Origin: Alphaproteobacteria bacterium
GTDB taxonomy: Bacteria; Pseudomonadota; Alphaproteobacteria; UBA6615
Reading direction: 5' to 3'
Length of the DNA stretch: 64,000 nucleotides
Assembly: GCA_021774445.1 (NCBI GenBank)
Contig: JAJFJA010000059.1
Span: 155,830-219,829, forward strand
This document shows, piece after piece, positions 10,517-56,549 of this stretch. A model generated the notes under the pieces. The model was not told the origin of the DNA. It was given only the letters and a program-made list of their open reading frames with translations, and did not search any database. Made by a program: the position numbers and the translations under genes. How positions within the stretch are numbered: position 1 is the first letter of the stretch; each line of letters starts with the position of its first letter.

Positions 10517-10559
10517 AGTGTCGATAATTAGTTCGTTGTCGACTCAAGGGGCGGGAATA

Positions 10560-34077: not shown

Positions 34078-34515
34078 TTACGGCATGCGATGCGGCCGGG
34101 CGGCAATGTTGTTGGCGGCTTGCAGTTCGCGCACATACACCACGATCGCGGCGATTTCCTGATCGCTGAGCCCTGGCTGCGGCGGCATGTTCCCGTATGG
34201 CCAGTGATGCTGAGGCACCCCTTGCCTGACGGCGCGAAAGAAGGCGGCATCGCCATGATGGCCGGGGTTATAAATGTCGTGGACAAAAGGCGGCCCCTTG
34301 TCGGTACCGGCGGCGTTCTGGCCATGACATTCGGCGCAGGCCGTGTCGAAGGCGATCTTGCCGGCCGCCGCTACTGGCGAAAGCACGGGAAGCGCAATCT
34401 CCTTCCCATCCGCATCGCCCGCCGATGGCGCCAGGATTTTCCAGGCGACTGTGATCACACCCGCCGCGACGACCCCCAAGACCAGGATGGCCGGTAACTT
34501 TCCACCAATTTTCAT
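34078..34515 (-). CDS. mono-haem c-type cytochrome, membrane-anchored
   Basis: CAECHG haem-binding motif, N-terminal TM/signal. Confidence 0.75.
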   Translation of the reverse strand: MKIGGKLPAILVLGVVAAGVITVAWKILAPSAGDADGKEIALPVLSPVAAAGKIAFDTACAECHGQNAAGTDKGPPFVHDIYNPGHHGDAAFFRAVRQGVPQHHWPYGNMPPQPGLSDQEIAAIVVYVRELQAANNIAARPHRMP

Positions 34516-34536
34516 CGCCGAAGCCCTTTCGCCCGC

Positions 34537-35232
34537 TCATTCCCCCCACATCCAGGCCGGTACCAGCCCGATATGGTTCTCGACCGCCTGCACACCGGCG
34601 ATGTTTTCTGCCGCCACTTGTGCGGCCTTTCTTTCCGTTTCGTTATCGACGACCCCCCAAAGCTGCACAACCCCGTTCGTGACGATCACGTTTATCGAGC
34701 CCGTCAGCAGCCCGGCATCGCGAGCCAGGGTTCCCAGCAGTTCCTCCCGGATGGTCCGGTCGTCGCCGGAGCCGCGCTGTGCCAGTGCGGCGCCACTGCC
34801 GGCGAGGCCGTGCAGCAAGTTGGCCCGACTGACAATACCAACGAGCCGTCCGCCGCGCATAATCGGCACCCGCTTGATGCGGTGCTTTTCGAGCAGGCCG
34901 GCGATCTCGCCAAGCGACATGTCCTCGGTGGCCGTGACAACGTCTCGGCTCATGACGTCGCTGGCTTTCCGGCCATGGGTCTTGATGTAGTCTTGCGCTT
35001 TGTCGGTCGCCGAGAACACCGCCTCCAGCCACCAGGAGTGTTGATTTGCGGTGTCGTTCTCCACCCGACGCATGAGATCGCCCTCGCTGACGATTCCGAC
35101 CACCTGTCGGTCCCCATCGATGACCGGAACCGCGCTGATCCTGTGTTTCAGCAACAGCGCCGCGATGTCTCGCACTTGCGTGTCCGGCTGCACCGTAATT
35201 ACGTCTGTGCTCATGACGTCCGTTGCGTGCAT
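34537..35232 (-). CDS. CBS-pair plus BON domain protein
   Basis: two CBS segments (HRISAVPVIDGDRQVVGIVSEGDL; HRIKRVPIMRGGRLVGIVSRANL) and C-terminal BON-like INVIVTNGVVQLWGVVDNETERKAAQVAAENIAGVQAV; ATG at MHATDVM chosen. Confidence 0.65.
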   Translation of the reverse strand: MHATDVMSTDVITVQPDTQVRDIAALLLKHRISAVPVIDGDRQVVGIVSEGDLMRRVENDTANQHSWWLEAVFSATDKAQDYIKTHGRKASDVMSRDVVTATEDMSLGEIAGLLEKHRIKRVPIMRGGRLVGIVSRANLLHGLAGSGAALAQRGSGDDRTIREELLGTLARDAGLLTGSINVIVTNGVVQLWGVVDNETERKAAQVAAENIAGVQAVENHIGLVPAWMWGE

Positions 35233-35264
35233 GTCTTCATCTCCTGCTCTCAGAGGCACCAGCC

Positions 35265-35816
35265 TCAGCCGATCGAAACCAGATCGTTCTCGGCAAACTT
35301 GTAGGGCGGCACCACGAGGTTCCTCGGTGCCGGTCCTTTGCGGATCCGTCCCGAGGTATCGTAATGCGAAGCATGGCAGGGGCAGAACCAGCCGCCCCAG
35401 CCGCCGAGCGGATCGCCGACCTTCTGGCCCAAGGGTATGCATCCCAAATGGGTGCATACCCCGACGACGATCAGCCACTCCGCTCGCTGAACACGGGCAC
35501 TATCGAGCTCCGGATCCTTGAGATCGGCGCTGTCATCCTGCCTTGCCCGGGCGATTTGCTCTGCCGTGCGGTGATCGACGAACACCGGTTGCCCACGCCA
35601 GACAATGGTCACCCGCTGACCCACGGCGATCGGCGCGAGGTCGAGTTCAGTGGTCGCGAGCGTGCGAACATCGGCGGCCGGGTTCAGGCTGTCGATGAGG
35701 GGCCAAATGGCGGCGGCCGTCGTGACCGCCGCCATCGCGCCCGTCATCACATAGAGAAAATCGCGGCGGGTCTCAGCCGGCTCGTGCCCTGGGGGAACCG
35801 TTTGAGTCGCGGACAT
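35265..35816 (-). CDS. Rieske [2Fe-2S] protein (PetA-like ubiquinol-cytochrome c reductase iron-sulfur subunit), orphan
   Basis: boxes CTHLGC and CPCHAS, Tat-like RRDFLY N-terminus; no petB/petC adjacent. Confidence 0.8.
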   Translation of the reverse strand: MSATQTVPPGHEPAETRRDFLYVMTGAMAAVTTAAAIWPLIDSLNPAADVRTLATTELDLAPIAVGQRVTIVWRGQPVFVDHRTAEQIARARQDDSADLKDPELDSARVQRAEWLIVVGVCTHLGCIPLGQKVGDPLGGWGGWFCPCHASHYDTSGRIRKGPAPRNLVVPPYKFAENDLVSIG

Positions 35817-35830
35817 TTCTGCCGCTCCTG

Positions 35831-36907
35831 TTAACCGCCGACCCCCTGGACCATCTGGTGCCCCCTGCCGCCGATCGGGATCGTCCCGACAACGACCAGA
35901 TCTTGCTGGTCGACCACCCAGATATCCGGCTGGTCGGCGCTCGAGACATAGAGCCTGCCGGTACCGTCGACCGCGGCAAGGTGATAGGGCGCGGGGGCTA
36001 GCGAAGCCGCGCGGCGCGCCGCCGTTTCGAGATCGATCGCAACCAGTTCGTCCTGCCCGCGGGCACTGACGAACAGGGTGTCGCCGTTCTGCGATAGGTC
36101 GATGCCGTGTAACGCACCACCGATGTCGAAGGTCCGCACGGTCGCGCCGCTATCCGTGGCGAGCTCCGAGACCGTGCCGTCGTCCACATTGGCGACATAA
36201 AGCCTGCGCCCATCGGCCGACAGCACCATATGCTCGGGGCTAACACCGGCCTTCATTTGGCGATGGATGGTCCACTGCCCGGTATCGACTTCGCTGACCG
36301 TGTTGTTGCCGGCATTGCTGACAAAGACATCTTCGCTGTCGGGACTAAATACCGCGTAGTTCGGCAGCGGTCCGGTCGCAACGGTCGCGACGACACCGTA
36401 GGACGCCAAGTCGATGACGCTGATCCCGCCCTCGCTGGGCTGGGTGACGACGGCGAATCGGCCGTTCGGGCTGACCGAAACATGGTGCACGGCACCCGGC
36501 ACGTCGATGCGCCGCACCACGGACATATCCGCGGTCCGTAACACTGACACGGTGCTGACGACCGCACCGTCCTTTTGAGCATCGACCGGCGCCGCGCTAT
36601 GGTGCGCATCGTGCTCATCCGCGGTCACGCTGGACGGTTTTTCAGGCGTCGCACTGCCGGGCTCGCGGTCCTCGAAACTACCGGCGATCAGGAAGGCGCC
36701 GTCGGGCGTCTTGGCGAGACCGTGCACAGCCGCAACACCGCCTATGGTGTCGACGATTTCATCCGTTGCGGCATCGACGACGACGATCTTGCCATCGCTG
36801 CCGAGCGGCACATATACCAGTGGCTCGGCGAAAGCCGTTTGCATTGCCAGCATGAGCGTGACCGCGCCGGGCCATGCCACGGTTCGGACAAGCGATACGG
36901 TTTTCAT
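35831..36907 (-). CDS. secreted YVTN-family beta-propeller repeat protein with His-rich insert
   Basis: repeated beta-propeller blades (LYVANVDDGTVSE, VFVSNAGNNTVSE, LYVSSADQPDIWVVD), signal peptide, DEHDAHHSAAP segment. Confidence 0.6.
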   Translation of the reverse strand: MKTVSLVRTVAWPGAVTLMLAMQTAFAEPLVYVPLGSDGKIVVVDAATDEIVDTIGGVAAVHGLAKTPDGAFLIAGSFEDREPGSATPEKPSSVTADEHDAHHSAAPVDAQKDGAVVSTVSVLRTADMSVVRRIDVPGAVHHVSVSPNGRFAVVTQPSEGGISVIDLASYGVVATVATGPLPNYAVFSPDSEDVFVSNAGNNTVSEVDTGQWTIHRQMKAGVSPEHMVLSADGRRLYVANVDDGTVSELATDSGATVRTFDIGGALHGIDLSQNGDTLFVSARGQDELVAIDLETAARRAASLAPAPYHLAAVDGTGRLYVSSADQPDIWVVDQQDLVVVGTIPIGGRGHQMVQGVGG

Positions 36908-36958
36908 AACTTTTCTCCATTTTCTGTGGGTGAATTCCTGCACGCCGGCGGAGTCCTT

Positions 36959-39322
36959 CTAGATTTCGACCGAGCGCAGGCGCAGCGCGTTGCCGACCAC
37001 CGATACCGAGGACAGGCTCATGGCCGCGGCGGCGAAGATCGGTGAGATAAGAATGCCGAAGAACGGGAACAGGATGCCCGCCGCCACCGGCACGCCGGCG
37101 GCGTTGTAAACCAGCGCGAAGAACAGGTTCTGCTTGATATTGCGCATCGTTGCACGGGCCAGACGCCGGGCCCGCACGATGCCGTTGAGGTCGCCCTTCA
37201 CCAGGGTAAGACCCGCGCTCTCTATGGCTACGTCGGCGCCGGTGCCCATGGCGATGCCGACGTCCGCCTGCGCCAGTGCCGGCGCGTCGTTGACGCCGTC
37301 GCCGGCCATGGCGACCTTCCGGCCCTCGGCCTGCAACTCCTTGATGATACGCGCCTTGTCCTCAGGCAACACGTCAGCGCGAATTTCGTCGATCCCCAGC
37401 CGTCCAGCCACCGCCTTCGCCGTGCGCTCGTTGTCGCCGGTCGCCATCACGATGCGGAAGCCTTCCTTGTGCAGCGCTTTCAGCGCCGCCGGTGTCGTTT
37501 CCTTGACCGGATCGGCGACCGCCACCAGGCCGGCGATTTCAGAGCCGACGATGACGAACATCACGGTTTCACCTTCGTCCCGCCGCGCATTGGCGCTCTC
37601 GGAGAGTCCGCCCCCATCGAGGCCCAGATCAGCAACCAACGTGGCATTGCCCAGCGCTACGGGCTTGCCGTCGACGATGCCCTTGACCCCTTTGCCGGTG
37701 ATCGCCTCGAATTCTTCAGTCTTGGCCAACGCGACCCCACGCGCCTCGGCGCCGCTGACGATCGCCTCGGCGAGCGGGTGCTCCGAACCCCGCTCCAAAC
37801 TTGCGGCCAGGCGCAGCACCTCGGCCTCGTCATGGCCGGTCTCGGGCAAGATGGCAACGAGCTTCGGTTTGCCGACGGTCAGCGTGCCTGTTTTGTCGAC
37901 GATCAGCGTGTCAACCTTGGCGAACCGCTCTAACGCTTCGGCGTTCTTGATCAGCACACCGGCTTGGGCGCCCCGGCCGGTCGCCGTCATGATCGACATC
38001 GGCGTCGCCAGGCCCAACGCGCACGGGCACGCAATGATCAAGACCGCAACCGCCGAGACCAGGGCGTAGGCGAGCGCCGGCGCTGGTCCCCAGAAGGACC
38101 ACACGACGAAGGCGACGGCGGCGATAGCGATCACCGCCGGTACGAACAGGCCGGCCACGGAATCGGCGAGCTTCTGGATCGGCGCCCGACTACGCTGCGC
38201 GTTCGCGACCATCTCGACAATTTGGCTGAGCATGGTGTCGGCGCCGACGCGTTTGGCCTCCATCACCAGGCTACCGGTCCCATTGATGGTGGCGCCGGTG
38301 ACCTTGTCGCCCTCGACCTTCTCGACCGGCACCGGTTCGCCGGAGATCATCGACTCGTCGACCGATGAGCGACCTTCGACCACGACGCCATCGACCGGGA
38401 CCTTGTCACCCGGACGCACGCGCAGCCGGTCGCCAACCTGTACGTCTTCAAGCGGAATTTCCTCCTCGCGTCCGTCGGCGCGGATCACCCGCGCGGTTTT
38501 CGCGGCGAGATCCAGCAGCGCCCGGATCGCCGAACCCGTGCGCTCGCGCGCGCCAAGCTCCATCACTTGGCCAAGCAGGACCAGAACGACGATCACCGCG
38601 CCGGCTTCGAAATAGACGCCGACATTGCCCTCCGGATCGCGGAAACCATCCGGAAAAATCCCCGGCGCCAGCACCGCCACCACACTGAAGAGATAGGCCG
38701 CGCCGACACCCATGCCGATGAGCGTGAACATGTTGAGACTGCGGTTGATCACCGACTTGACGCCGCGCACGAAGAACGGCCTGCCGGCCCACAGAATGAC
38801 CGGTGTGCCCAAGGCCAGCTCGACCCAAAGCGTCGCCCGCTCACCCAGGATATCGCGCACGAAGCCGAGCCCGACGATGGGCCCCATGGTCAGCACGAGA
38901 AGCGGCACCGTCAGCACCGCCCCGACCCAGAACCGGCGCTTGAAATCGACAAGTTCCGGATTCGGTCCTTCGTCGGCCGCCGGAACGCCCATCGGCTCCA
39001 ACGCCATGCCGCAGATCGGGCAGTCGCCCGGTCCGTCGCGCATGATTTCCGGATGCATCGGGCAGGTATATTGGGTGCCCTCGGGCGCCGCCTCGCGCGT
39101 CTGTTCACCGGCAAGATAATGCGCCGGATCGGCGGCGAACTTGTCTTGGCATCCCTGACCGCAAAAGTGATAGGTCGTGCCATCGTGCAGGTAGCTGGGT
39201 TTGCCAACGTCCACTGGCACGGCCATGCCGCAAACCGGATCCTTGGCGGTCTTGTCGCCAACTAGGGTGGTCGCCGTGCTTCGCCGATGGTCGCTGTGAG
39301 CGTGGTGAGCTTTTCCATTCAT
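36959..39322 (-). CDS. copA: copper-translocating P1B-type ATPase (CopA-like) with N-terminal YHS/TRASH and CPxCG metal-binding domains
   Basis: DPVCGMAV...[12 protein letters not shown] (YHS/TRASH), CPMHPEI...CPICGM, TM CPC motif [25 protein letters not shown]. Confidence 0.85.
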
Positions 39323-39373: not shown

Positions 39374-39715
39374 TCAATCAGATAGCAACCGCCGGCGCTC
39401 TTCGAACTCTTCCTTGTCGATCTCGCCTCGGGCGAAGCGTTTTTCCAGAATGTCGAGGGATCGCGACCCGGACTCTTGGGATGCCGCATCTTGCGGCGAC
39501 CGGCCACCGAGCCAGCGCACCGCCAGTATGACCACGAGGATGAGCCCGCCCCAGAACAGCACCATCATCACCAGGCCGAACGCCATGTGTCCCCAGCCCC
39601 AGTCCCAACCCGGATGCCAGTCGTTCGGACCGGCGGCCGTCGCCTGGGCCAGGGCCGGAAACGCCGCCAGCGCGGCGGGCAGTGCCGCGAACTTATTAAT
39701 CAACGGTCTTAGCAT
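39374..39715 (-). CDS. membrane protein with C-terminal SHOCT domain
   Basis: TM (GLVMMVLFWGGLILVVILAV) plus SHOCT-like ILEKRFARGEIDKEEFEERRRLL; ATG at MLRPLINK chosen. Confidence 0.55.
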   Translation of the reverse strand: MLRPLINKFAALPAALAAFPALAQATAAGPNDWHPGWDWGWGHMAFGLVMMVLFWGGLILVVILAVRWLGGRSPQDAASQESGSRSLDILEKRFARGEIDKEEFEERRRLLSD

Positions 39716-39750: not shown

Positions 39751-40074
39751 CTAGGCCAGGCGCTTCGCGAAAAAATTGTAGAGCGGGCCGAAAACCAGCG
39801 CGATGTACCACCCGTAGGCGAATGTCTCGACCAGGCCGAGCACGAAGCTGCTCCAGCTTATCCAAGTGAAGCCGGGGAGCAGGGGCGACCACGCCGGGTT
39901 CATCGCCAGCGCGGGAAACCACAGATCGAACAAGACGCACAGCACGAACGTTAATGACAAGAACGACCCCAGGCCCGCGCCCAAGGCGACGATCGGGATG
40001 TAGGGGACTCTGCGCGCCGGCAACGGCGTGCCTGCGCGCGCGGGTGGGTCGTTGGCGAACGCTGTTTCACGCAT
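39751..40074 (-). CDS. small polytopic membrane protein of unknown function
   Basis: three predicted TM helices; start ATG overlaps stop of upstream YHS gene by 8 nt (ccATGcgTGA); alternative start at 40107. Confidence 0.4.
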   Translation of the reverse strand: MRETAFANDPPARAGTPLPARRVPYIPIVALGAGLGSFLSLTFVLCVLFDLWFPALAMNPAWSPLLPGFTWISWSSFVLGLVETFAYGWYIALVFGPLYNFFAKRLA

Positions 40075-40411
40075 GGGAATGCTCCAATCTTGGCTGTTCA
40101 GGGTCACCGCCGCTCACATACAGATCGGGGGCCGCTTCGAAGACCTCGCGGCACTCGCGTGAGCAGAAGTAGTAGACGTGGCCAGCGTGAACACTGGGTT
40201 TCGCCCTGTCGGTCGTCACTGTCTTACCGCAAACCGGATCGGTATCCGTTTTCGGCGGTACCCAGCGGAGCTCGGCGTTGTCCTCTTGACCGCACCTGCC
40301 GCCCGCTTGGCCAGCGCCGTGGCCGCGCCCCATGATGTGCGCGCCACAGCCGACGCGCATCATCAGGAAAATGAGCGCGCCCCAGAAGGCGAAATAGAGT
40401 AAAGCTTCCAT
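40067..40411 (-). CDS. membrane-anchored YHS/TRASH-domain metal-binding protein
   Basis: N-terminal TM (LLYFAFWGALIFLMM), Gly/His-rich spacer, YHS motif DPVCGKTV...YYFCSRECREVF. Confidence 0.6.
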   Translation of the reverse strand: MEALLYFAFWGALIFLMMRVGCGAHIMGRGHGAGQAGGRCGQEDNAELRWVPPKTDTDPVCGKTVTTDRAKPSVHAGHVYYFCSRECREVFEAAPDLYVSGGDPEQPRLEHSHA

Positions 40412-40460: not shown

Positions 40461-40994
40461 TTATGGCTCGACGCGCTGCAACTGCCCGGTATGCCGGTCG
40501 ACCTCGAAACGCTCGACCAACGAGCCGTCGACGGTGGTGATGTCGGCGGTGACCGTGTCGCGGTCGACCTCCGTGACCTCGCCGACCGTCAGACGGCTGT
40601 TGCCGTGTCTCTCAAGACTATGCTCGAGGAAATGACGCACATCGTCCCCGGAAAGATCCTTGCTGGGGACCACCGGTCCGCGAAACCCGAACCCTGCGCC
40701 CCCCGAGCCCATCATGCCCTGGGGACCTTGGTCCGATCCCATCATTCCGGAACCCATCATGCCCTGGGTGCCAAAGCCCGGCCGCATCATGCCTTGATCA
40801 CCCATGCCTGGCGCTGCCACATTCGACCGGCCACCGCGATGACCGAACTGACCCTGGTCCATATGGGTCAACCCGGTGGGCGATCCCGCCTTGACGTTAC
40901 TGTGACCGCCGGCGGCAAGACCGGGACTAGCGAGCAGCGCAAGCGCCCCCAATCCGCCGATTGCGGCCACTGCCGATTTGCGAAGCTGTGTCAT
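40461..40994 (-). CDS. secreted Met/Gly-rich protein with C-terminal PepSY-like domain
   Basis: signal peptide, repeats GMGDQGMMRPGFGTQGMMGSGMMGSDQGPQGMMGSG, C-terminal VGEVTEVDRDTVTADITTVDGSLVERFEVDRHTGQL. Confidence 0.5.
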   Translation of the reverse strand: MTQLRKSAVAAIGGLGALALLASPGLAAGGHSNVKAGSPTGLTHMDQGQFGHRGGRSNVAAPGMGDQGMMRPGFGTQGMMGSGMMGSDQGPQGMMGSGGAGFGFRGPVVPSKDLSGDDVRHFLEHSLERHGNSRLTVGEVTEVDRDTVTADITTVDGSLVERFEVDRHTGQLQRVEP

Positions 40995-41165
40995 CGTGAT
41001 GCCTTTATGTCTGGTGTTTTCGAACACCCTCAATGTAGTAGGGCCGTGTCACGAGACGACCACCGGCGGGCGCCGTTTGGTAACGGACTGTCACAAGCCC
41101 GGGTCGAGTTATGGTCCGTTACAAATTTCTTCGCGGTCGTGGCGATGACGGGGTATTTTGCCTCC

Positions 41166-41915
41166 ATGAATGTTCCGGGGGCCGCCTTTGCGGCTCACAT
41201 ACTGGTCGTCGACGACGATCGCGAAATACGCGATCTGTTGGGGCGGTTCCTCACCAAGCACGGCTATCGGGTCACCGCGGCGCAGGACGGTAAAGAGATG
41301 CGCCGGGTCCTCGCGGACTGGAGCATTGATTTGGTTATCTTGGACCTCATGCTGCCCGGTGAAGACGGGCTGTCGTTGTGCCGGTATTTGCGGTCCCGAT
41401 CGCAGATCCCGATCATCATGTTGACCATGATGAGTGAGGAAACGGACCGCATCGTCGGGCTCGAGATGGGCGCCGACGACTACCTGCCAAAGCCGTTCAA
41501 CCCGCGCGAGTTGTTGGCCCGCATGAAGGCTGTGCTCCGCCGGGCGCAAAGCGCCCCCGCCGTGGCGGTCAACGGCAAACGGAAGATCCTGCGTTTCGCC
41601 GGTTGGAAGCTCGACTTGGGCCTTCGCCGGCTGGAATCTCCCACCGGGCTTGTGATCGACCTGACCGCCGGCGAGTTCGACCTGCTGGTCGCTTTTGCCG
41701 AGCATCCGCAGCGGGTGCTGAACCGCGATCAGCTCTTAGACCTGACCCATGGCCGGGCGGAGGCACCGTTCGAGCGCAGTATCGATATGCAGATAAGCCG
41801 CCTGCGTCACAAGATCGAGACCGACCCGAAGCAACCGGAATTGATCAAGACGGTGCGCGGCGGGGGTTATGTTTTTGCAGCAATTGTGGCGCCGGATGAA
41901 ACGCTTGATACCTGA
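41166..41915 (+). CDS. OmpR-family two-component response regulator
   Basis: receiver (ILVVDDDREIRDL...DLVILDLMLPGEDG) plus winged-helix output (LTAGEFDLLVAFAEHPQRVL); ATG inside ORF 40437..41915. Confidence 0.8.
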   Translation: MNVPGAAFAAHILVVDDDREIRDLLGRFLTKHGYRVTAAQDGKEMRRVLADWSIDLVILDLMLPGEDGLSLCRYLRSRSQIPIIMLTMMSEETDRIVGLEMGADDYLPKPFNPRELLARMKAVLRRAQSAPAVAVNGKRKILRFAGWKLDLGLRRLESPTGLVIDLTAGEFDLLVAFAEHPQRVLNRDQLLDLTHGRAEAPFERSIDMQISRLRHKIETDPKQPELIKTVRGGGYVFAAIVAPDETLDT

Positions 41916-43269
41916 GTCGATCGCCGCCCGAACCCTTGTCGTATTGATCGTTGGACTCACGGTGTCGCACATCCTGAGTGTCGGCTTGTATTTCACCGAC
42001 CGGACGAGCGCGCTCTTGTTTACCGGTGGCGAGCATATCGGCGAGCGCATCGCGACGATCGGTCGCCTCGCCGAAAATGCGTCGCCGGAAGAGCGGCAAC
42101 GTATCGCCGAGCTCGCGGATTCGACAGCGCTCCATGTCACGCTGAGCCAAGAAAGCGCCATCGACGATCAACAAGATGGCGGCTGGCAGGCAGTGGTTCT
42201 CCGTGATGCCTTGGTCGCCCACCTCGACGATGGGGGTCAACGGGGATTGACACTTCGCCATGCGGATGCGGACACCGTTGAAGTCTGGCGGGATCACCTC
42301 CGCCAAAATCATCAAGTGGAGTCGCTTGGTGAGACGTTTATGGCCTCGCTCCAATTGCCCGACAAGAGCTGGCTCAATTTTGCCGCGCCGGTCACCTCGC
42401 CCGAGTCCTTCTGGACGCTTCGTTTTGCCCTGTCGATGGCCGTGATGCTCCTCGCTGTGGGCATCTTGTCTGCCTTGGTCGTGCGTCATCTAACCAGGCC
42501 GCTGGGCACATTCGTGCGCGCGGCGCGGCGTCTCGGGCTCGATGTCAAAGCCCCCCCGCTGCCTGAAACCGGCCCGGCCGAGGTCCGACAAGCAGCGCAA
42601 GCGTTCAACGAAATGCAAAAACGCATTCGGCGTTTCGTCGAAGACCGGACGCAAATGGTGGCGGCTATCTCTCACGACCTGGGCACACCGATCACGCGCA
42701 TGCGGTTGCGGGCGGAATTCGTCGAGGACGAGGAGTTGCAAAAGAAGATGCTCGCCGACCTAGACGACATGGAAGAGATGGTTTTCTCCGCCTTGTCGTT
42801 CGCGCGTGACGAGGCCACCGACGAACCCAATGCAATGGTTGATCTCAGGACCTTGCTGCAGCGCGTTTGTGACGACATGGCCGACGCCGGTCATGCGGTT
42901 GTGCTGGATGTCGGCGACGATGCCGTGCCATACGGCTGCCGGCCGGTCGCGTTGCGGCGCGCCTTCGCCAACCTCATTGGCAATGCCGTCAAATACGGTC
43001 TTTGCGCGCGCGTGTCGCTGACCAACAGCCAGGACGCCATTCTGGTGACGATTGATGATGATGGCCCCGGAATTCCCGATGAGTTTCGGGAAGACGTTTT
43101 CAAACCTTTCCGGCGACTTGAGGTGTCGAGAAGCCGGGAAACCGGCGGCACGGGGCTCGGCCTGACCGTGGCGCGGACAGTTATCCGCGCGCACGGTGGC
43201 GACTTGACGCTGCTGAACCGTCGTGAAGGGGGCCTTCGGGTCGCGGTGCAATTGCCACGAAGCCTCTGA
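41896..43269 (+). CDS. sensor histidine kinase (two TM, periplasmic sensor, HAMP, HisKA, HATPase)
   Basis: H-box AAISHDLGTPIT, N-box IGNAVKY, G-boxes DDDGPGIP and GGTGLGL. Confidence 0.8.
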   Translation: MKRLIPESIAARTLVVLIVGLTVSHILSVGLYFTDRTSALLFTGGEHIGERIATIGRLAENASPEERQRIAELADSTALHVTLSQESAIDDQQDGGWQAVVLRDALVAHLDDGGQRGLTLRHADADTVEVWRDHLRQNHQVESLGETFMASLQLPDKSWLNFAAPVTSPESFWTLRFALSMAVMLLAVGILSALVVRHLTRPLGTFVRAARRLGLDVKAPPLPETGPAEVRQAAQAFNEMQKRIRRFVEDRTQMVAAISHDLGTPITRMRLRAEFVEDEELQKKMLADLDDMEEMVFSALSFARDEATDEPNAMVDLRTLLQRVCDDMADAGHAVVLDVGDDAVPYGCRPVALRRAFANLIGNAVKYGLCARVSLTNSQDAILVTIDDDGPGIPDEFREDVFKPFRRLEVSRSRETGGTGLGLTVARTVIRAHGGDLTLLNRREGGLRVAVQLPRSL

Positions 43270-43277: not shown

Positions 43278-44195
43278 CTACATGACAAAAGCCGCATCGA
43301 CGATCAGCGCGACAAAAACCCCCATCAGGTACAGGATCGAAAATCCGAAGGCGCGTTTGGCCCGGGCGTCATCGGGATTGCGCCACAGGTCAACCGCTAC
43401 GCCCAGATAGGCCAGGGCCAGCAGCAGGGCCATGGCGCCATAGCCGATCCCGGCGATCCCGACGATGACCGGCAAAACGGACAGCGGCACCAGGGCCGCG
43501 GCGTAGACGACCATCCGTCTGATTGTCGCTGCCCGGCCGGCGACGGCGGGCATCATCGGAATCCCCGCCCGCACATAGTCGTCGTTGCGATACAGCGCCA
43601 GTGCCCAGAAATGTGGCGGGGTCCAGAAGAAGATGATCAAGAACAGGCTGAACGAAGCGATGCTGACATCGCCGGTCACCGCGGCCCAGCCGATCATCGG
43701 CGGCAACGCCCCGGCTGCCCCGCCGACGACGATGTTCTGCGGTGTCCGGCGCTTGAGCCAGACCGTGTAGACCAGGATGTAGAAGGCGATCGTCAGCGCC
43801 AGCAACCCTGCCGCCACCCAGTTCACGACCAAACCCATGACCGAGACGGATATCGCCGACAGCGCCAAACCGACCGCGAGCGCTGCCCTCGGCGACACCA
43901 ATCCCGCCGGGATCGGCCGCCGACTGGTTCGTCCCATGATCGCGTCGATGTCGCGGTCATACCACATGTTGAGGGCACCGGCGCCGCCGGCGCCCGCCGC
44001 GATACAAAGGATCGCGACAACCATCAAACCGCCATCGAGCGATCCGGGCGCGATCGCCATGCCGACAAAGCCGGTAAAAATTACCAGCGACATGACCCGC
44101 GGTTTCAGCAACGCCCACACGCCCCACACCGTTTCCCTGGCGGCGGACCGCGTAAGACCGGTGCCTGTCGAAAGACCAGGGGCGATTTCTGTCAT
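43278..44195 (-). CDS. ctaB: protoheme IX farnesyltransferase (heme O synthase)
   Basis: UbiA-family polytopic protein with CtaB/CyoE signature (NMWYDRDIDAIMGRTSRRPIPAG). Confidence 0.85.
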   Translation of the reverse strand: MTEIAPGLSTGTGLTRSAARETVWGVWALLKPRVMSLVIFTGFVGMAIAPGSLDGGLMVVAILCIAAGAGGAGALNMWYDRDIDAIMGRTSRRPIPAGLVSPRAALAVGLALSAISVSVMGLVVNWVAAGLLALTIAFYILVYTVWLKRRTPQNIVVGGAAGALPPMIGWAAVTGDVSIASFSLFLIIFFWTPPHFWALALYRNDDYVRAGIPMMPAVAGRAATIRRMVVYAAALVPLSVLPVIVGIAGIGYGAMALLLALAYLGVAVDLWRNPDDARAKRAFGFSILYLMGVFVALIVDAAFVM

Positions 44196-44254: not shown

Positions 44255-45376
44255 TTACATCTGCATGTCGCCCATTTCCATGCCCTCGGTCATCATCACG
44301 CCCATCATGCCGAGCTGCATATGGAACGGGAACATGCACATGAACATCCACAGACCGGGCTGCTCGATCTTCAGCACCGTTTCGAAGCTGTCGCCCGGCA
44401 TCACCAATGGATTCTCGAAAATCGCCTCATGTTCGGTCAGGTTCCAATCGGCCCGCTGGATGCGATAGCCGACGGACGCCATGCCCGGCCCGGTCATCAG
44501 CATGAATTCGTGCGGTATGTTGCCCCCGTTGGTAATGACGAACCGAATGACCTCGCCCGGCTCCACCATGATGGAACTGGGGCTGTAGCCCCATTCGGTC
44601 ATTTTCACTTCGATTGTCCGGGCGGCCGGCATTGCGGCCCCGGCGGCGACAAGCTCGATTCCGCCACCGCCTTCATGGCCTCCCTCGGCTGCCTCCGCCG
44701 CCTCCGCATGGTCCCCGCCGGCCGCTGTGTCGGCCATGTCCATCCCCGGCATTTGCGCGGCCGGCTGTTCGCCCGGCTGGTCCATCGCCATGGCCGGCGC
44801 CGCATCGGCTTCGGCAGCTTCCATTTGCCCCGATGTGGAGTCGCCCGCCACGCCCTCTGCCATTTGCATGACTTGGCCCGTCGCCGGACTATCCGAAGCC
44901 CCCGCCGCATCCTTGGCGGTCTCCATGACCATGCCCGGCATGGCTTGATCGTCGGTTGCTTCGGCGCTGCCCGCCTCCATCTGCATTGGCGCCGCCGCAT
45001 CGGTCGTGGCTGCTTCGTCCGCCATTTGCATGACTTGCGGTTCGTCCGGCTGGTCCATCGCCATGCCTTCCATCGCGTCGCCCGCGTCGCCGCTTGGCTC
45101 GGCGGCGCCCATCGTCATGCCGGGCATCGCGGTCATTTGTGCCGCCAGTTCTTCGGCCAGATGCTCGGCGTCCGTCGCCGGCAGCTCGAAGACGTCGTGG
45201 CCGATCTCGGTCGACAGTTTCCAGGCCTCTGCCGCCGGCATCAGCCCGGCTTGCCGGTAGCGGTCGATGGGCGTCTGCGCAGCCACCTGCGATGTCGGTA
45301 GCGGGGCCACGACGGTGAAATACCAGGCAACGCCAATGACCAGAATTCCGACAACCAACCACGCACGAACAACCAT
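44255..45376 (-). CDS. membrane-tethered azurin-like type-1 copper (cupredoxin) protein with about 220-aa Met/Ala/Asp/Glu-rich repeat region
   Basis: N-terminal TM (VVRAWLVVGILVIGVAWYF), two about 80-aa repeats rich in M-x-M/QM motifs, C-terminal cupredoxin with azurin-like ligand spacing (PHEF ... CMFPFHMQLGMM). Confidence 0.6.
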   Translation of the reverse strand: MVVRAWLVVGILVIGVAWYFTVVAPLPTSQVAAQTPIDRYRQAGLMPAAEAWKLSTEIGHDVFELPATDAEHLAEELAAQMTAMPGMTMGAAEPSGDAGDAMEGMAMDQPDEPQVMQMADEAATTDAAAPMQMEAGSAEATDDQAMPGMVMETAKDAAGASDSPATGQVMQMAEGVAGDSTSGQMEAAEADAAPAMAMDQPGEQPAAQMPGMDMADTAAGGDHAEAAEAAEGGHEGGGGIELVAAGAAMPAARTIEVKMTEWGYSPSSIMVEPGEVIRFVITNGGNIPHEFMLMTGPGMASVGYRIQRADWNLTEHEAIFENPLVMPGDSFETVLKIEQPGLWMFMCMFPFHMQLGMMGVMMTEGMEMGDMQM

Positions 45377-45395
45377 CCTTTCAGCCTCCCGATGT

Positions 45396-46973
45396 TTATT
45401 CCGCAGGTGCCGGCGTACCGGCGGGCACGGCGATATCGTCGCCCAGCTCCCACGGGTCGCCGCTGCATTCCCTGCCATGGCGCACGGTCAGCGCCAGATT
45501 GACCACGAAAACGAGGAATCCGAGGCCAATCAGATTGGCCGCAATGGTCAACACCATCTGCGGCGTCGCCCACTCGGTTAGCGGCAGGTAGTCGACGACC
45601 CATCGCGGGAAGAACACCAGACCCAGCAGGAACATCATCGTGACCTTGCCGAAGATGCCGATCTGCCAAAGCCAGAAATGCGCGTTGGCGAGGGTCTGGT
45701 TGTAATGGCGCCCGGTGATGTAGGGGTAGACGAAGTAGATGCCGGCGATCGCCATCTGCGCGCAAAAACCCAGGAACATCGCGTGGAAATGCGCCGGTAT
45801 CCAATAGGTGTTATGGATGAAATCGGTATCGATCGAGATTTGCGCATTAATGAACGCCGTTACCCCGCCATAGATCACGAAGAAGATCGCGCCGATCGCG
45901 AATTTGAACGGCACCGCCCGCCGCGCCGAGTCCGGGATGCGCCCCTGCCACAGCGAGGCGATCCAGTTGAACACATGCAGGGTGCTGGGAATGAAAATAA
46001 GCAGCGTGAGAATCTGAAACGCCCGCTGCACCCAAGTGTGCTCGGTCACGGCCGGCTGGAAGTGGTGATGGAAGACGACGAACGAGAGCAGGAACAGCGA
46101 TGAGAAGGCGATGATCGCCGACACGTGGCTCCACATCGGCCGCCCGAGGAAGCGTGGCAGCAGGCTATATAATATGCCGATCGCCGGGACGAAGGGCAGA
46201 TAGACCGCCGGATGGCCGTAGAACCAGAACATCCACAGGAATGTCTTCGTACTGCCCCCGGCGGCGGGATCGAACATCGCCGTCGCGCCGAGCCAATCCG
46301 TCAGCAACAGCGTGCCGACCAGGCTGAGGGCCGGGGTCGATATGACCAGCATGGCGCCCACCGTCAGCATCGCCCAGCCCATCAGCGGCATCGTCATCAG
46401 ACCGCCGCGCCAAGCCAGGGCGTTGCGGATCAGCATCACGCCGGCGAGGAATTCCGAGATGCCGACCAGGACGATCGCCAGATATCCCAGCCACACCAAA
46501 TCGCCGCCGACCCTTAGGCTCATCGGCGTATAGAACGTCCAGGTGAAGTCCGGCCGCCCGACGAGCAGCAATACCGCCGCCAGCGCCAGCAGCCAGTAGC
46601 TCCACTGCGCTAGCCCCGACCACAGCAGACCGTCCAGCTTCAGCAATTTCGGCATCAGGAAATAGCAGACCGACAGCGTCAGCGGGATCACGAAGCCGAA
46701 CACCATCAGCATGCCGTGCAGGGTCAGCAAGGTGATGTAGACCCGCGCCCCGAAATACTGAATGCCGGGAACCGCCAGTTCGGTCCGGAAGGTCAGCGCG
46801 AACAGCCCGGCCAGCCCCAGCATCACCAGCGAGGTGAGAATTCCCTTGATGGCGATGACTTGGTAGTCGTTCGAGAACAGCAGCTCCTTCAGCGTAAGCG
46901 TACCGAGCAGGTTTCTCGGCTGCCAATGAAGGGTTCTCGTCTCGGCAATCTCGTCTGCGGTCGGAAGCGCCAT
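45396..46973 (-). CDS. heme-copper oxidase subunit I, B-family (ba3-like)
   Basis: WFYGHPAVY, FHHHF, HNTYWIPAHFH motifs matching B-type subunit I; 12 or more TM. Confidence 0.8.
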   Translation of the reverse strand: MALPTADEIAETRTLHWQPRNLLGTLTLKELLFSNDYQVIAIKGILTSLVMLGLAGLFALTFRTELAVPGIQYFGARVYITLLTLHGMLMVFGFVIPLTLSVCYFLMPKLLKLDGLLWSGLAQWSYWLLALAAVLLLVGRPDFTWTFYTPMSLRVGGDLVWLGYLAIVLVGISEFLAGVMLIRNALAWRGGLMTMPLMGWAMLTVGAMLVISTPALSLVGTLLLTDWLGATAMFDPAAGGSTKTFLWMFWFYGHPAVYLPFVPAIGILYSLLPRFLGRPMWSHVSAIIAFSSLFLLSFVVFHHHFQPAVTEHTWVQRAFQILTLLIFIPSTLHVFNWIASLWQGRIPDSARRAVPFKFAIGAIFFVIYGGVTAFINAQISIDTDFIHNTYWIPAHFHAMFLGFCAQMAIAGIYFVYPYITGRHYNQTLANAHFWLWQIGIFGKVTMMFLLGLVFFPRWVVDYLPLTEWATPQMVLTIAANLIGLGFLVFVVNLALTVRHGRECSGDPWELGDDIAVPAGTPAPAE

Positions 46974-47013: not shown

Positions 47014-47616
47014 TCAGGACTCTGTCGGCGCGCCGTCGACCACCAGCCATGCCTTCATCTGCGAATGTCCGACGCCGCAATAATTGAGGCATTGGATCAA
47101 GTACTTGCCCGGCGTGTCCGGCGAGCGGATCCAGATGTGGCGGACGGCGCCGGGCTCGAACTCGGTCGTCATGCGGGCGGCGGGTATATTGAAGCCGTGC
47201 ACCACATCGTTCGACATGATCGTGAACAGCACCTTTTGACCCGGCGCTACTTTGACGGCGTTGCGGCTGGCCGCGCCGTTTTCGTCGACGAAGGCAAAAC
47301 CCCACTGAAAGGCGAAGACCCGGACCGTCCTGTCGAAGGCATCCTGGTCCTGTCCGGTGTCGGGGACCCCCGCGAGCGAGTCGCCTCTCGGCAGGTCCTT
47401 CTCATAGGCCGTAAAGGCGGCGGTGCTGCGCGCATCGGCAAATACCGCGAGCACCACGAGAAGCGCCGCGAAAAAGACTTCGATCCGGTAATGGAGTTGC
47501 CAGCGCCGTGGCCATAACAACGCCATGAACAAGGCCACGATCCCGGCACTCCCCAAGGCGATGATGATCGCAAACATCACGGCCTGATCGGCCATCAAGC
47601 CGAGCGCATTGAGCAT
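47014..47616 (-). CDS. heme-copper oxidase subunit II (short, B-family-like) with CuA site
   Basis: CuA ligands HGFNIP ... CLNYCGVGHSQM; two N-terminal TM. Confidence 0.75.
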   Translation of the reverse strand: MLNALGLMADQAVMFAIIIALGSAGIVALFMALLWPRRWQLHYRIEVFFAALLVVLAVFADARSTAAFTAYEKDLPRGDSLAGVPDTGQDQDAFDRTVRVFAFQWGFAFVDENGAASRNAVKVAPGQKVLFTIMSNDVVHGFNIPAARMTTEFEPGAVRHIWIRSPDTPGKYLIQCLNYCGVGHSQMKAWLVVDGAPTES

Positions 47617-47776: not shown

Positions 47777-49528
47777 ATGGATATCGTGGGCAATAAGCTC
47801 CACCGGCGCATTTCGGCGTTACGCACGCCGGTGGCGATCGCCATGATGGTGGTCGTCGCGACCCACCACATCGTCATCCAACGGGCCGTCCCGGGCTGGC
47901 ATTTGCCGACCGAGATCCTGGTTTATGGCATCGCCGGTCCGATCATCGCCTGGGTCTTGCTGGGCTGGCTCGCGCGCAGCGTCGAATCCGCCGAAACGGC
48001 CAGCGACGCCCTGGCCGAAAGCGTCGCCGACCTGGCCCGCCGCAATACCGAAATCGAGGCCCTCTACAATGCCAGCCGGCTGCTGACCGGGGCCCGGTCC
48101 TTGTCGAACATCGCCGGCTCACTGCTGCAACTGGCGATGCAGATCACCAGGGCGAAATCAGGGGCGCTGGTACTTTTCGATGCCGACGACCAGAGCGGTC
48201 CGATTGCGCCGGCCGCCGGCGATGCCGGAAACCATTTGCGCCGCGACCTGCTGGCCCATGTTGAGGCCGGCCCATGCCTAACCTGCCCCGAGCGCGCCCG
48301 CTGCCCACTTCCCGAGGGCGTGCGCTGCATGCCGATCGTGGCCGGCCGCCATGTCCTCGGCATCCTACGCTTGCAGGAGCCGGCGTGGCACCCCGAACCG
48401 CGGCGCAGCCTCGATGCACTGCTGAGTGAGATCGCCGCGGTTTGGATGGCCAGGCAAGCCGAAAGCCGCGCCTTCACCGCGTTCAGCAAGGTCGGCCAGG
48501 AGCTGCGCGGCGAGGCTGACGTCGGTCGCGTTCTGACCCGTTTCGCCGAGCTTATTTGTGACGCCAGCGGTGCCACGGCTGTCCGCTTGTTTCGTCGCCG
48601 GCACAGCGACTGGACCCTCCGGGCATCGAGCCGGTCCGAGCTGCCGCCGCCGCTGCCCCAATCCCTGCCCCAGGGAACCGACGCCGTGTGGCAGGAAAGC
48701 AAAGGGCGGTTCGTTTACGTCCTGGTCGATGGAGACTGCCTCCTGGCGCTTGATTTCGCCGGCGTTCGGCCGCTTAACCAGCGCGATGGCGCCTTGCTCA
48801 AGTCCCTGGCCCAGCAGGGCAACGCTTTGGCCACGATAACGGAGCGGATGTCCGAGATAATCTGGAATGAACGACAACGGACGGCTCAGGAGCTGCACGA
48901 CGGGCTTGCCCAGAACTTGGCTTTCCTCAACTTGCAGATTCGCCGCCTGGCGGAAATGCTTGACCCGCACATGCCTGCCGACATGCGCGGCGATTTCGAC
49001 AAATTGTCCGAGGCGGCCCTCGATACTTATGACGAACTACGCATGACCATCGGCGACCTACGGCTGCATCCCGGCGACGGCGAGAATCCCGTCGGTTTTT
49101 TGCGTCGCGTCGTCACCGCTTTCGCGCGCCGCCAGAACGTTGCCGCCAATATCGAGGCGTCGGCAGATCTCTCCCTCACGGAAGAGGTTCTTGCCCACCT
49201 CACGCGCCTGGTGCAGGAGGCTTTGAGCAATGCCGTCCGCCACGGCGCGGCGACGCGCGTCGACATCGTCCTCACGCGCGCCGACCAGGGCACCGCGCTG
49301 CATATGTCGATCAGAGATAACGGCACCGGTTTCGACGCCAAGGACACGCCGGCGACCGAGGGACATTACGGCCTCAAGACAATGCGCGAGCGGGTCGCCA
49401 GCATGTCAGGCAGCGTTCGGTTCGAGAGTCGGTTGGGGCAGGGGACGACCGTTCACGTCCGTCTGCCGGGTGTCGTCGCCGGCCCGGCCCGGCCCGATTT
49501 GGCCCCGGCGCCGCTGGGCGCAAAATGA
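47777..49528 (+). CDS. NarL/LuxR-type sensor histidine kinase (HisKA_3) with TM, GAF-like regions and a four-Cys cluster
   Basis: H-box ERQRTAQELHDGLAQNL, HATPase_c (RDNGTGFD, GHYGLKTMRERV), Cys cluster CLTCPERARCPLPEGVRC. Confidence 0.75.
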   Translation: MDIVGNKLHRRISALRTPVAIAMMVVVATHHIVIQRAVPGWHLPTEILVYGIAGPIIAWVLLGWLARSVESAETASDALAESVADLARRNTEIEALYNASRLLTGARSLSNIAGSLLQLAMQITRAKSGALVLFDADDQSGPIAPAAGDAGNHLRRDLLAHVEAGPCLTCPERARCPLPEGVRCMPIVAGRHVLGILRLQEPAWHPEPRRSLDALLSEIAAVWMARQAESRAFTAFSKVGQELRGEADVGRVLTRFAELICDASGATAVRLFRRRHSDWTLRASSRSELPPPLPQSLPQGTDAVWQESKGRFVYVLVDGDCLLALDFAGVRPLNQRDGALLKSLAQQGNALATITERMSEIIWNERQRTAQELHDGLAQNLAFLNLQIRRLAEMLDPHMPADMRGDFDKLSEAALDTYDELRMTIGDLRLHPGDGENPVGFLRRVVTAFARRQNVAANIEASADLSLTEEVLAHLTRLVQEALSNAVRHGAATRVDIVLTRADQGTALHMSIRDNGTGFDAKDTPATEGHYGLKTMRERVASMSGSVRFESRLGQGTTVHVRLPGVVAGPARPDLAPAPLGAK

Positions 49529-51812: not shown

Positions 51813-51824
51813 TAGCGCGCCCTC

Positions 51825-54122: not shown

Positions 54123-54155
54123 CGCTAGTAGCCTCGTTCGTGGCGGCGGTCTTGG

Positions 54156-55214: not shown

Positions 55215-55292
55215 CGCGGCATCCGCCCCGCGGCCGGCGCTTGATTAGGCGAACATGCCCCGAGGCACCGGTTGGCCGAAGTCAAAGAATAT
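54879..55292. repeat. about 413-bp segment (GT4 5' end plus upstream) duplicated at 57461..57873
   Basis: direct comparison of the two stretches shows about 95% identity by eye over about 410 bp. Confidence 0.8.
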
Positions 55293-55561
55293 CCTCAAAC
55301 GTAAGTCATTTATCGCCGCACACTGCGTTCCCAGGTACGAGGCGATCGCCAGTGGCCCCCAGATCCGCGGGAGGGACGGCGCACTCCCGCATCGCGGCGG
55401 CGCTGGCTCCAGAGGTCTGCCGCCTTCAGGTGTCGCGATAACTCCGGAACTGCGGCGGCGCGCCAACAAAGTGACCCTATAACACTAGAAACGCCAATGA
55501 AACATCTGCGCCTGGCTATGAGCACGCATGCGAGGCAGGGCAGAGCGTGTCCGCTCGGACC

Positions 55562-56458: not shown

Positions 56459-56549
56459 TTACGAGGTCAGGGGTCCAGCCGCCAACCGAAAGCTATTGTG
56501 CCTCGTCTGTCGGCTGCGGGCTTACGGGCCGCCAATCAGGGGGCATCTG

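Follow-up and report, generated by a model that had tools for sequence, protein, structure and literature searches.

The window analyzed here is a stretch of 64,000 nucleotides from an alphaproteobacterium of the UBA6615 lineage (contig JAJFJA010000059.1, positions 155,830 to 219,829). At window positions 34078-39322 it contains five genes, all on the minus strand, that encode a Cu(I)-exporting ATPase (CopA), a secreted beta-propeller protein, a Rieske iron-sulfur protein (ISP), a CBS-CBS-BON protein and a cytochrome c (Table 1). The first-pass annotation of this DNA had proposed that these co-directional and tightly spaced genes form a candidate operon. Their clustering was confirmed: the intergenic gaps are 51, 14, 32 and 21 nt, from copA to the cytochrome c gene, and every start is preceded by a Shine-Dalgarno-like motif. 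A consensus scan of the cluster revealed no sigma-70-like promoters and no convincing terminator between the five genes, the terminator-like matches being weak and located within genes. The next downstream neighbor, a glutathione S-transferase gene, is 330 nt away. The extent of the proposed operon, on the other hand, probably needs revision. Four additional co-directional genes, encoding Met/His-rich, YHS, DUF5676 and SHOCT proteins, are located upstream of copA with gaps of at most 51 nt or overlapping ends, and the transcription unit is therefore probably longer than five genes, starting at the gene for the Met/His-rich protein. A copper-exporter gene followed by genes for this propeller, a Rieske protein and small cytochromes c is also seen in dozens of other alphaproteobacterial genomes and plasmids (loci designated by L numbers), which points to a copper-defense module that also services the respiratory chain.

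Table 1. Genes of the candidate operon and of its surroundings, in window positions
Feature	Position	Strand	Basis and remarks
copA, P1B-1 Cu(I)-exporting ATPase with YHS and HMBD	36959-39322	-	Pfam, NCBIfam, motifs; 787 aa
Secreted seven-bladed YVTN/lactonase-type beta-propeller	35831-36907	-	Pfam YNCE, Lactonase; TIGR02276; 358 aa
Orphan bc1-type Rieske protein (PetA isoform)	35265-35816	-	Pfam UCR_Fe-S_N and Rieske, TIGR01416; 183 aa
Cytoplasmic CBS-CBS-BON protein	34537-35232	-	Pfam CBS, BON
Membrane-anchored mono-haem class I cytochrome c	34078-34515	-	Pfam Cytochrom_C 3.5e-13; CAECH
SHOCT-domain protein with signal peptide	39374-39715	-	Pfam SHOCT; 51 nt upstream of copA
DUF5676 membrane protein, two transmembrane segments	39751-40107	-	Pfam PF18926
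Small YHS/TRASH-domain protein	40067-40411	-	Pfam YHS 1.6e-9
Met/His-rich secreted protein, probable first gene of the unit	40461-41033	-	translation
OmpR-type response regulator	41167-41915	+	Pfam; divergent from operon
HAMP-HisKA sensor kinase	41869-43269	+	Pfam; divergent from operon
Haem O synthase	43278-44195	-	over its equivalog cut-off
Met-rich CopI-like cupredoxin	44255-45478	-	407 aa; weak CopI match; long Met-rich acidic region, C-terminal type-1 cupredoxin
Haem-copper oxidase subunit I, divergent	45396-46973	-	Pfam/NCBIfam
Haem-copper oxidase CuA-type subunit II, divergent	47014-47616	-	CuA motif CLNYCGVGHSQM in translation

CopA scores above the cut-offs of the copper-ATPase models TIGR01511 (592.1 bits versus 397) and TIGR01525 (631.7 versus 346), and Pfam identifies E1-E2_ATPase (7e-58), Hydrolase, YHS (3e-10) and HMBD (1e-11) domains in it. 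Its translation contains DKTGT(LT), as well as CPC in transmembrane segment (TM) 4, N-x6-YN-x4-P in TM5 and P-x6-M-x2-SS in TM6, and the last three motifs are the P1B-1 signature in the established P1B classification. The first-pass description of a CopA with a YHS/TRASH domain is thus borne out by Pfam YHS and HMBD and by TIGR01511. These two domains occupy the N-terminus, where Pfam detected no HMA domain (the ferredoxin fold with CxxC); this is an N-terminal variant that leaves the core CopA assignment unaffected. CopA copies that are 73-92% identical precede the propeller gene at many related loci. At three loci (L036, 7906-9813; L042, 1738-3645; L073, 8032-9939), another P-type ATPase, 39-40% identical to CopA of the window, precedes a propeller-(Met-rich cytochrome c)-Rieske-CBS/BON arrangement as in the window family, so that the downstream module pairs with at least two ATPase lineages. 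Genes of the thymidine-phosphorylase family and for ribose-phosphate diphosphokinase were seen directly upstream of copA on several Roseobacter-group plasmids (L089, 1-4320; L090, 1-4747; L096, 12533-17336).

The ATG start of the second gene yields a protein (MKTVSL...) with a Sec signal, and the domain matches in Table 1 place it in the YVTN/YncE-like superfamily. Its AlphaFold model (pLDDT 86, pTM 0.84) has seven blades. Ten histidines are invariant or nearly so (H62, H99, H102, H103, H141, H142, H226, H267, H309 and H350, in the numbering of the 358-aa protein), and N183, Y184, E225 and Q351 are likewise conserved. The conservation was assessed in 62 homologues from the loci, 40 database homologues and about 40 representatives of 50%-identity clusters, and even these representatives, which are only 37-52% identical to the query, keep the ten histidines. 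In the model, H62, H141/H142, H226, H267, H309 and H350 are located where the first strand begins in six of the seven four-strand units, the remaining blade carrying N183/Y184 in place of a histidine, and H99, H102 and H103 form an HxxHH motif on a short helix in a low-confidence insertion. We conclude that the propeller probably binds several copper ions at its hub. The signal, the repeats and the histidines agree with the earlier description of a secreted His-containing beta-propeller. Its homologues bear generic names only in database annotations; it appears to be an uncharacterized family, every other part of the module coming from known families.

Fold comparison places the propeller near both known copper-cluster propellers, with nitrous oxide reductase (NosZ) as the third-closest solved structure. 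Three observations led us to reject its identity as a NosZ. Firstly, it reaches 54.7 bits against a cut-off of 700 with the model of lactonase-type NosZ (NF052460). Secondly, hhalign against the NosZ of S. meliloti gave a probability of 8.9% (E 0.0037). Thirdly, it lacks the CuA cupredoxin domain, the 358-aa protein finishing at the last propeller strand. Pfam and NCBIfam searches identified no nosDFYL genes in the window. Membership of the thiocyanate dehydrogenases, whose propeller holds a trinuclear copper center, was likewise rejected on scores. A different clue comes from the gene that follows the ATPase at other loci. In the order ATPase-cupredoxin-DUF2933-ICMT-cytochrome c-Rieske (L088), a cupredoxin takes the place that the propeller has in ATPase-propeller-x-PEMT-cytochrome c-Rieske (L085), and the propeller therefore fits the role of a periplasmic copper-handling partner of CopA.

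The third gene had been described as encoding a stand-alone Rieske protein with no cytochrome b/c1. Part of this description holds: petB and petC are absent within 10 kb from the window and from 40 other orphan loci, and were found solely at L086 and L095. The protein itself, on the other hand, is by its sequence a standard bc1-type PetA and not a new type of Rieske protein. It matches Pfam UCR_Fe-S_N (7e-17) and Rieske, scores 209.8 bits with the PetA equivalog model TIGR01416 (cut-off 97.4), and aligns over its full length with solved bacterial and mitochondrial bc1 ISPs (E down to 6e-52). It contains the RRDFLY Tat motif, a TM anchor, the ADV hinge, the CTHLGC and CPCHAS boxes, the disulfide cysteines, the GPAP loop, and the Ser and Tyr which, near a Rieske cluster, raise its potential (PMC10715153). 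When orphans were compared region by region with two in-operon PetA proteins, the mean identities between orphan and in-operon proteins and among orphans were 0.62 and 0.59 for the anchor, 0.59 and 0.60 for the hinge, and 0.76 and 0.79 for the cluster fold. Thus, the orphan Rieske proteins are still under bc1-type constraint. Relaxation of anchor and hinge would be expected in a protein that no longer belongs to a bc1 complex, and it is not seen here. We therefore read this Rieske protein as an isoform of the complex III subunit, whose cytochrome b/c1 partners are most likely encoded at another site, and not as a carrier that acts by itself; we infer its assembly into a bc1 complex solely from the conserved anchor and hinge. 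A separate orphan clade was considered and rejected, since the neighbor-joining tree, itself weak, is star-like and separates canonical from orphan proteins in 23 of 100 bootstraps. Similarly, an 18-residue loop between the cluster boxes is not an orphan-specific insertion, as it is equally long in related in-operon PetA proteins.

The CBS-BON protein contains two CBS stretches (Pfam 6.4e-32) followed by a BON domain (2.9e-16). Its start was refined to 35232, the 313-aa open reading frame (ORF) of the mechanical list being an upstream over-extension that overlaps the Rieske gene. Its translation has no signal peptide, and the protein is therefore considered cytoplasmic. The gene follows the Rieske gene after 32 nt in the window and after 36-47 nt at L036, L042, L073, L096 and L097, and coordinates on three more plasmids further support this order. 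On L096 (Roseovarius mucosus pSMR3-1, 8362-9699) and L097 (Sulfitobacter dubius, 8365-9699) the setting of the pair is sigma-DUF3141-FabI-petA-CBS/BON-PLD-DUF5676-MBL-thymidine phosphorylase-like-PRPP synthetase-like-copA-DUF2933-ICMT. The proteins of the pair at these two loci and at L036, L042 and L073 are only 45-50% identical to those of the window. Rieske-CBS/BON is thus a conserved gene pair, including on Roseobacter-group plasmids. CBS-BON proteins are much commoner than this pairing (223 plasmid records). As to the proposal that this protein belongs to the module, its gene is indeed present and adjoins the Rieske gene, but the product would be cytoplasmic and accompanies the Rieske protein at a minority of loci.

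The last gene encodes, as had been proposed, a membrane cytochrome c with one haem: besides its Pfam match, the protein has a single CAECH, a Met ligand in GNMPP and a hydrophobic N-terminal anchor, which make it a class I, membrane-anchored cytochrome. There are 33 unique homologues in related loci, mostly encoded directly after the Rieske gene, with CxxCH and the Met ligand conserved. Its nearest solved relatives (E about 1e-6) are actinobacterial QcrC and the haem domains of CcoP and cytochrome cy, all of which act as carriers that connect bc complexes with oxidases. The family, that is, the window protein and its 33 homologues, also keeps PGHH and HHW motifs, which may form an additional metal site. 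A second family, a secreted Met-rich cytochrome c of about 175 aa (12020-12559 at L032; homologues at 25 loci), does not occur in the window, and no NCBIfam model recognizes it. Its gene is nearly always directly upstream of the orphan Rieske gene, and the genes for the Met-rich cytochrome c, the Rieske protein and the first cytochrome c are contiguous at about 15 loci, with gaps of 26-340 nt. Within the 40 residues that precede the CxxCH of the Met-rich cytochrome there are 8-13 methionines, and this segment looks like a Cu(I)-binding stretch.

The conservation of these genes in related genomes was analyzed from both sides. A propeller-seeded scan, with one genome per species, gave 80 loci, about 74 of which have family members (43-71% identity). 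Features were counted by tblastn and ORF clustering, and dereplication at 80% identity resulted in 43 groups. The nearest relatives are metagenome-assembled genomes (MAGs) of Rhodospirillales, Kiloniellaceae and Dongiaceae. Within 10 kb of the propeller gene, a CopA-like ATPase is present at 42 of the 74 loci (22 of the 43 groups) and a PetA-like Rieske gene at 26 (13 groups). As a genome has about one or two PetA-like genes, we estimate chance proximity at about 1%, and this linkage is therefore not due to chance. The 145-aa cytochrome c is found near the propeller at 31 loci (19 groups), the Met-rich cytochrome c at 25 (14 groups), an ICMT-like methyltransferase at 32 (20 groups), DUF2933 at 26 (15 groups) and CBS-BON at 7 (4 groups). 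Among the genes upstream of copA in the window, the SHOCT gene adjoins copA or the propeller gene at 33 of the 74 loci, the YHS gene recurs at 32 and DUF5676 accompanies YHS at 29; the Met/His-rich protein, with zero Pfam or NCBIfam matches, has homologues at a few related loci. At 28 loci, less than 1.5 kb separates the propeller gene from the end of an upstream ATPase gene whose product is at least 60% identical to CopA of the window.

The commonest gene order, seen in Sneathiella, Kiloniellaceae, Hyphomicrobiales and one Nitrospiraceae-binned contig, is two-component system, YHS-DUF5676, copA-(SHOCT)-propeller-DUF2933-ICMT-Met-rich cytochrome c-Rieske-cytochrome c-AhpD-NhaA. The core that is commoner among the relatives comprises copA, the propeller or a cupredoxin, DUF2933, the ICMT-like methyltransferase, the Met-rich cytochrome c, the Rieske protein and the cytochrome c. 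The window, in which DUF2933, ICMT and the Met-rich cytochrome c are missing, thus represents a reduced version of this core. The order varies; for example, the Indioceanicola profundi plasmid places the Rieske gene upstream of YHS. Independently of this variation, three adjacencies (copA-propeller, Rieske-cytochrome c and Rieske-CBS/BON) are found repeatedly in many lineages and plasmids of alphaproteobacteria, so that the genes are conserved together in related genomes. Two further observations concern the location of these islands. The chromosome of a Sneathiella MAG (OZ245808.1) contains two full islands (L028 and L032) about 1 Mb apart, each with an orphan Rieske gene, and on the MAG chromosome of L085 (contig ctg15122, 2.49 Mb; 8055-12561) copA-propeller-PEMT-cytochrome c-Rieske is separated by one transposase fragment from a canonical nosZ-nosD-nosF-nosY-nosL-apbE cluster.

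Because propeller-seeded loci are biased, sampling from the Rieske side was added. Copper-homeostasis genes are present at 13 of the 16 Rieske-seeded loci, and two of the 16 are petABC operons. Seven of the nearest Rieske homologues on long contigs consist of six orphans in copper contexts and one petABC operon (65% identity); the six orphans correspond to five distinct loci, L082 and L083 being identical. The contexts of these orphans are ScsC-Rieske-MerR with SCO1/Cox11/SodC, DUF2933-ICMT-Rieske-cytochrome c with a YHS-HMBD ATPase, copA-propeller-x-PEMT-cytochrome c-Rieske (L085), PEMT...Rieske-ScsC-DsbD...MerR-HMA, and HMA-ATPase-cupredoxin-DUF2933-ICMT-cytochrome c-Rieske-NhaA (L088). In the plasmid collection, a Rieske homologue was found in 81 records. 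Nine of eleven annotated plasmid contexts contain copper genes (Indioceanicola, Ruegeria, Leisingera, Ensifer, Nitratireductor, Sinorhizobium pSinB, Roseovarius and two of Sulfitobacter, one of the latter read by coordinates only), one is ambiguous (Bosea) and one is a petABC operon (Azospirillum). Overall, petB and petC adjoin the Rieske gene at two of the 43 Rieske-bearing loci, and a P1B ATPase lies within 10 kb at 30 of the 41 orphans. These copper loci differ in make-up: they include ScsC/DsbD/MerR/SCO1/Cox11/SodC, CcdA-DsbA-TlpA-DsbE-DUF411-MCO-RND, SCO-DsbA-CcdA-ICMT-CusAB and copA/CueR, and some have no propeller or cytochrome. Their shared theme is copper stress combined with the maturation of respiratory proteins in the periplasm; it is not a single redox partner.

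Outside the operon, the divergent two-component system at 41167-43269 is a candidate for its regulator, and homologues of the sensor kinase, with up to 74% identity, adjoin the island at 18 loci. The DNA that separates the genes for the Met-rich protein and the response regulator (41034-41166) contains repeated GTCAC and GTTAC/GTAAC half-sites (tGTCACgaga, GTAACggacTGTCACaag, cGTTACaaa), which could be putative binding sites for the response regulator. Together with the Rieske protein and the cytochrome c, the haem O synthase, the cupredoxin and the haem-copper oxidase would make up a nearly complete alternative high-potential respiratory branch. However, cox1 and cox2 recur beside the island at L074 only; their link to the module is therefore weak, and we treat the oxidase as a neighbor and reject it as a conserved part. 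Divergent from the oxidase genes is a second two-component system (47777-50154, plus strand), in which a LuxR-type response regulator is combined with a GAF/HisKA_3 kinase, and this system is followed at 50247-59961 by DNA of lower GC content (0.56-0.60) with genes for glycosyltransferases, a GH130 phosphorylase and an adenylate/guanylate cyclase. The Rfam scan of the window identified nothing besides one distant tRNA, tRNA-Ala(CGC) at 59886-59961. No integrase or mobile-element boundary was found among the ORFs scanned, and the scanned flanks look chromosomal (FolD, ArgG, glycosyltransferases). In related islands there are, in addition, genes for DUF3141, FabI, acetate kinase, type II GAPDH, cyclopropane fatty acid (CFA) synthase, PLD or cardiolipin synthase, ECF sigma factors and NhaA, as well as a pta-like gene. 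This island family thus seems to serve against energy and membrane stress and to be built around a copper core.

For the cluster as a whole, the putative role would be periplasmic electron transfer or copper handling, as the first-pass annotation had suggested. Copper kills bacteria largely through damage to Fe-S clusters and to the maturation of periplasmic cytochromes. Our preferred explanation, which we hold tentatively, is that the genes form a copper-stress operon with three tasks: to export Cu(I), to capture or process the copper by means of the propeller, and to provide a cytochrome c together with an exchangeable ISP for bc1. According to this explanation, the operon would sit on a mosaic copper and energy-stress island. 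CopA would pump Cu(I) to the periplasm, where the multi-His hub of the propeller would take it up, a CopI-like cupredoxin being its counterpart in the same position of related modules. The Rieske protein would be an exchangeable isoform or spare that is inserted into a cytochrome b/c1 core presumed to be encoded elsewhere in the genome, and the anchored cytochrome c a spare or alternative carrier from bc1 to an oxidase. Together they would sustain the high-potential chain that is exposed to the periplasm while copper harms Fe-S clusters and the maturation of c-type cytochromes. We favor this explanation because of the operon anatomy, the ten invariant histidines of the propeller and its exchange for a cupredoxin at one and the same position, and for three further reasons. 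First, the conserved bc1 features of the Rieske protein fit it, as does the precedent of Rubrivivax gelatinosus, whose orphan and operon ISPs are reported to be interchangeable (Ouchane 2005, cited in PMC4013037). Second, orphan PetA recurs in copper loci with thiol, haem or copper maturation factors. Third, PMC4600104 reports periplasmic c-type cytochrome assembly to be a target of copper.

Several points weigh against this explanation. The orphan Rieske protein has no obvious copper-hardening substitutions. The participation of the CBS-BON protein, as a nucleotide-sensing partner in Rieske assembly, export or regulation, is the weakest step and is speculative. The strands that bear the histidines of the propeller are presumed from secondary structure and motif analogy to be the innermost ones. 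The propeller-seeded loci (L002-L081) were selected through the propeller and include many MAG contigs, which makes the counts biased and partly truncated. Finally, the Met-rich cytochrome c, the Rieske protein and the cytochrome c in a row, together with the Met-rich segment, look like a dedicated electron-transfer chain and less like spare parts.

This last point leads to the alternative that survives best, a respiratory cuprous-oxidase chain, which we consider rather unlikely. Exported Cu(I) bound to the propeller would be oxidized to Cu(II), and the electrons would flow through the cytochromes c, and possibly the Rieske protein, to a terminal oxidase; in relatives, Cu(I) would also be bound by the Met-rich cytochrome c or by a cupredoxin. 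Copper would thus be detoxified much as by CueO, but with a tie to respiration, and the logic is similar to that of the rusticyanin/cytochrome c/oxidase chain of iron oxidizers. The contiguity of the three electron-transfer genes at about 15 loci, the 8-13 methionines before the haem domain of the Met-rich cytochrome, the proximity of the propeller fold to both copper-cluster propellers, and the CuA-type oxidase, haem O synthase and CopI-like cupredoxin that adjoin the operon in the window are all consistent with such a chain. However, the Met-rich cytochrome c is missing from the window and the oxidase genes recur at one other locus only. Furthermore, it is not evident what a bc1-type ISP that keeps its anchor and hinge would do in such a chain, and copper loci with neither cytochrome nor propeller contain orphan PetA as well. 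Unlikely, too, is a bolder reading in which the His-ring propeller is a new periplasmic multicopper center that forms, with the Met-rich or anchored cytochromes c and the Rieske protein, an unrecognized route by which the oxidation of exported Cu(I), or a CuZ-like turnover, delivers electrons to respiration, the CBS-BON protein being a dedicated nucleotide-sensing factor in the assembly or regulation of the alternative Rieske protein.

It is also conceivable, but in our opinion improbable, that the ATPase supplies copper for the assembly of cuproenzymes (the propeller, the nearby oxidase and the cupredoxin) rather than for detoxification. The propeller would then be a new CuZ-like or trinuclear copper enzyme, with the Rieske protein and the cytochromes c as its electron supply, much as clade II nos clusters hold Rieske and cytochrome genes as an electron-supply branch. 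NosZ being the third-closest solved fold, the seven conserved histidines on blade strands (including an HH pair) plus the HxxHH loop, the weak match to the lactonase-type NosZ model and the oxidase cluster adjoining the operon would all agree with this possibility, as would the clade III NosZ loci, which are reported to have cytochrome neighbors and no nos accessory genes (PMC13477213). The score with that NosZ model is far below its cut-off (54.7 bits versus 700), though, and the lack of a CuA domain and the low hhalign probability also argue against an enzyme of this kind. Moreover, a plain cupredoxin can stand in for the propeller, and the context of the islands is that of copper resistance (CueR, MCO, Cus, Scs, Met-rich proteins and a CopRS-like two-component system).

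Equally improbable is that independent genes without functional coupling merely ride one mosaic stress island (FabI, DUF3141, ackA, type II GAPDH, NhaA), as the highly mosaic order and content, the much non-copper cargo and the presence of the Rieske gene at only about a third of the propeller loci would allow, because copA-propeller, Rieske-cytochrome c and Rieske-CBS/BON stay adjacent, within tens of nt, despite 45-65% protein identity and rearranged surroundings, and the Rieske gene recurs in copper loci otherwise unrelated in content.

Copper-resistance islands are normally read as pumps, oxidases and chaperones only. That a Cu(I) exporter is recurrently combined, on mobile DNA, with a complete Rieske subunit of complex III and with cytochromes c suggests that islands may in addition bring the respiratory chain either a dedicated route for electrons or parts for replacement. 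Orphan Rieske genes, which have long been noted in alphaproteobacteria, thereby gain a concrete copper context, and the unannotated propeller family with its ten invariant histidines is a candidate for a new copper center. Cultured carriers with plasmid copies (Nitratireductor, Ruegeria, Leisingera, Roseovarius, Sulfitobacter, Ensifer and Sinorhizobium) make genetics feasible. Full-text literature searches found no published description of copper-island Rieske genes, of the propeller or of their combination, in agreement with the first-pass view that orphan Rieske/cytochrome c genes beside copper exporters had not been described. What would be new here is the recurrent combination, above all the Rieske-CBS/BON pair and the association of orphan Rieske genes for complex III with copper genes, none of which was found in the available literature.

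Individual parts of the module do resemble known systems. Like cytochrome cy and CcoP, the cytochrome c has a haem c domain of class I behind an anchor at the N-terminus, but its linker is much shorter than that of cytochrome cy and it has the extra PGHH and HHW motifs. With respect to copper, CusF in E. coli and CopI in Rubrivivax are periplasmic acceptors of CopA copper. A hand-off from CopA to a periplasmic acceptor is described in PMC13308877, and the likeness lies in a periplasmic protein, known or presumed to bind copper, whose gene accompanies that of the Cu(I) exporter or which acts together with it. The presumed acceptor in the window, however, is a 36-kDa propeller with ten invariant histidines and not a small protein with a Met/His site. 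In comparison with the CuZ domain of NosZ and with thiocyanate dehydrogenase, the histidines of the propeller are spread differently over the blades, the HxxHH loop is extra, CuA and nosDFYL are lacking, family-model scores are far under the cut-off and profile-profile similarity is weak.

The module as a whole is reminiscent of the MerR-copA-cupredoxin-DUF2933-ICMT module of Alteromonas and other marine gammaproteobacteria (PMC8478169). In both cases the gene after that of the Cu(I) ATPase encodes a known or presumed copper protein of the periplasm, and DUF2933 and ICMT are also present in most relatives of the window. The window itself is without DUF2933 and ICMT, and it has a His-ring propeller instead of the cupredoxin, apparently two-component instead of MerR regulation, and an added Rieske protein and cytochrome c. 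In the case of the Rieske gene, the closest parallels are PetA2 of Rubrivivax gelatinosus and ISP2 of alphaproteobacteria, which are likewise bc1-type Rieske proteins encoded outside petABC, of full length and near the in-operon form. PetA1 and PetA2 of Rubrivivax are reported to be interchangeable in the complex (PMC4013037), and the Rieske protein of the window would be a candidate for a similar exchange. ISP2 genes have been described as lying in isolated clusters with "no common flanking genes" (PMC4013037). In contrast to that description, genes of the type present in the window are recurrently flanked by copper-homeostasis genes, cytochromes c and sometimes CBS-BON.

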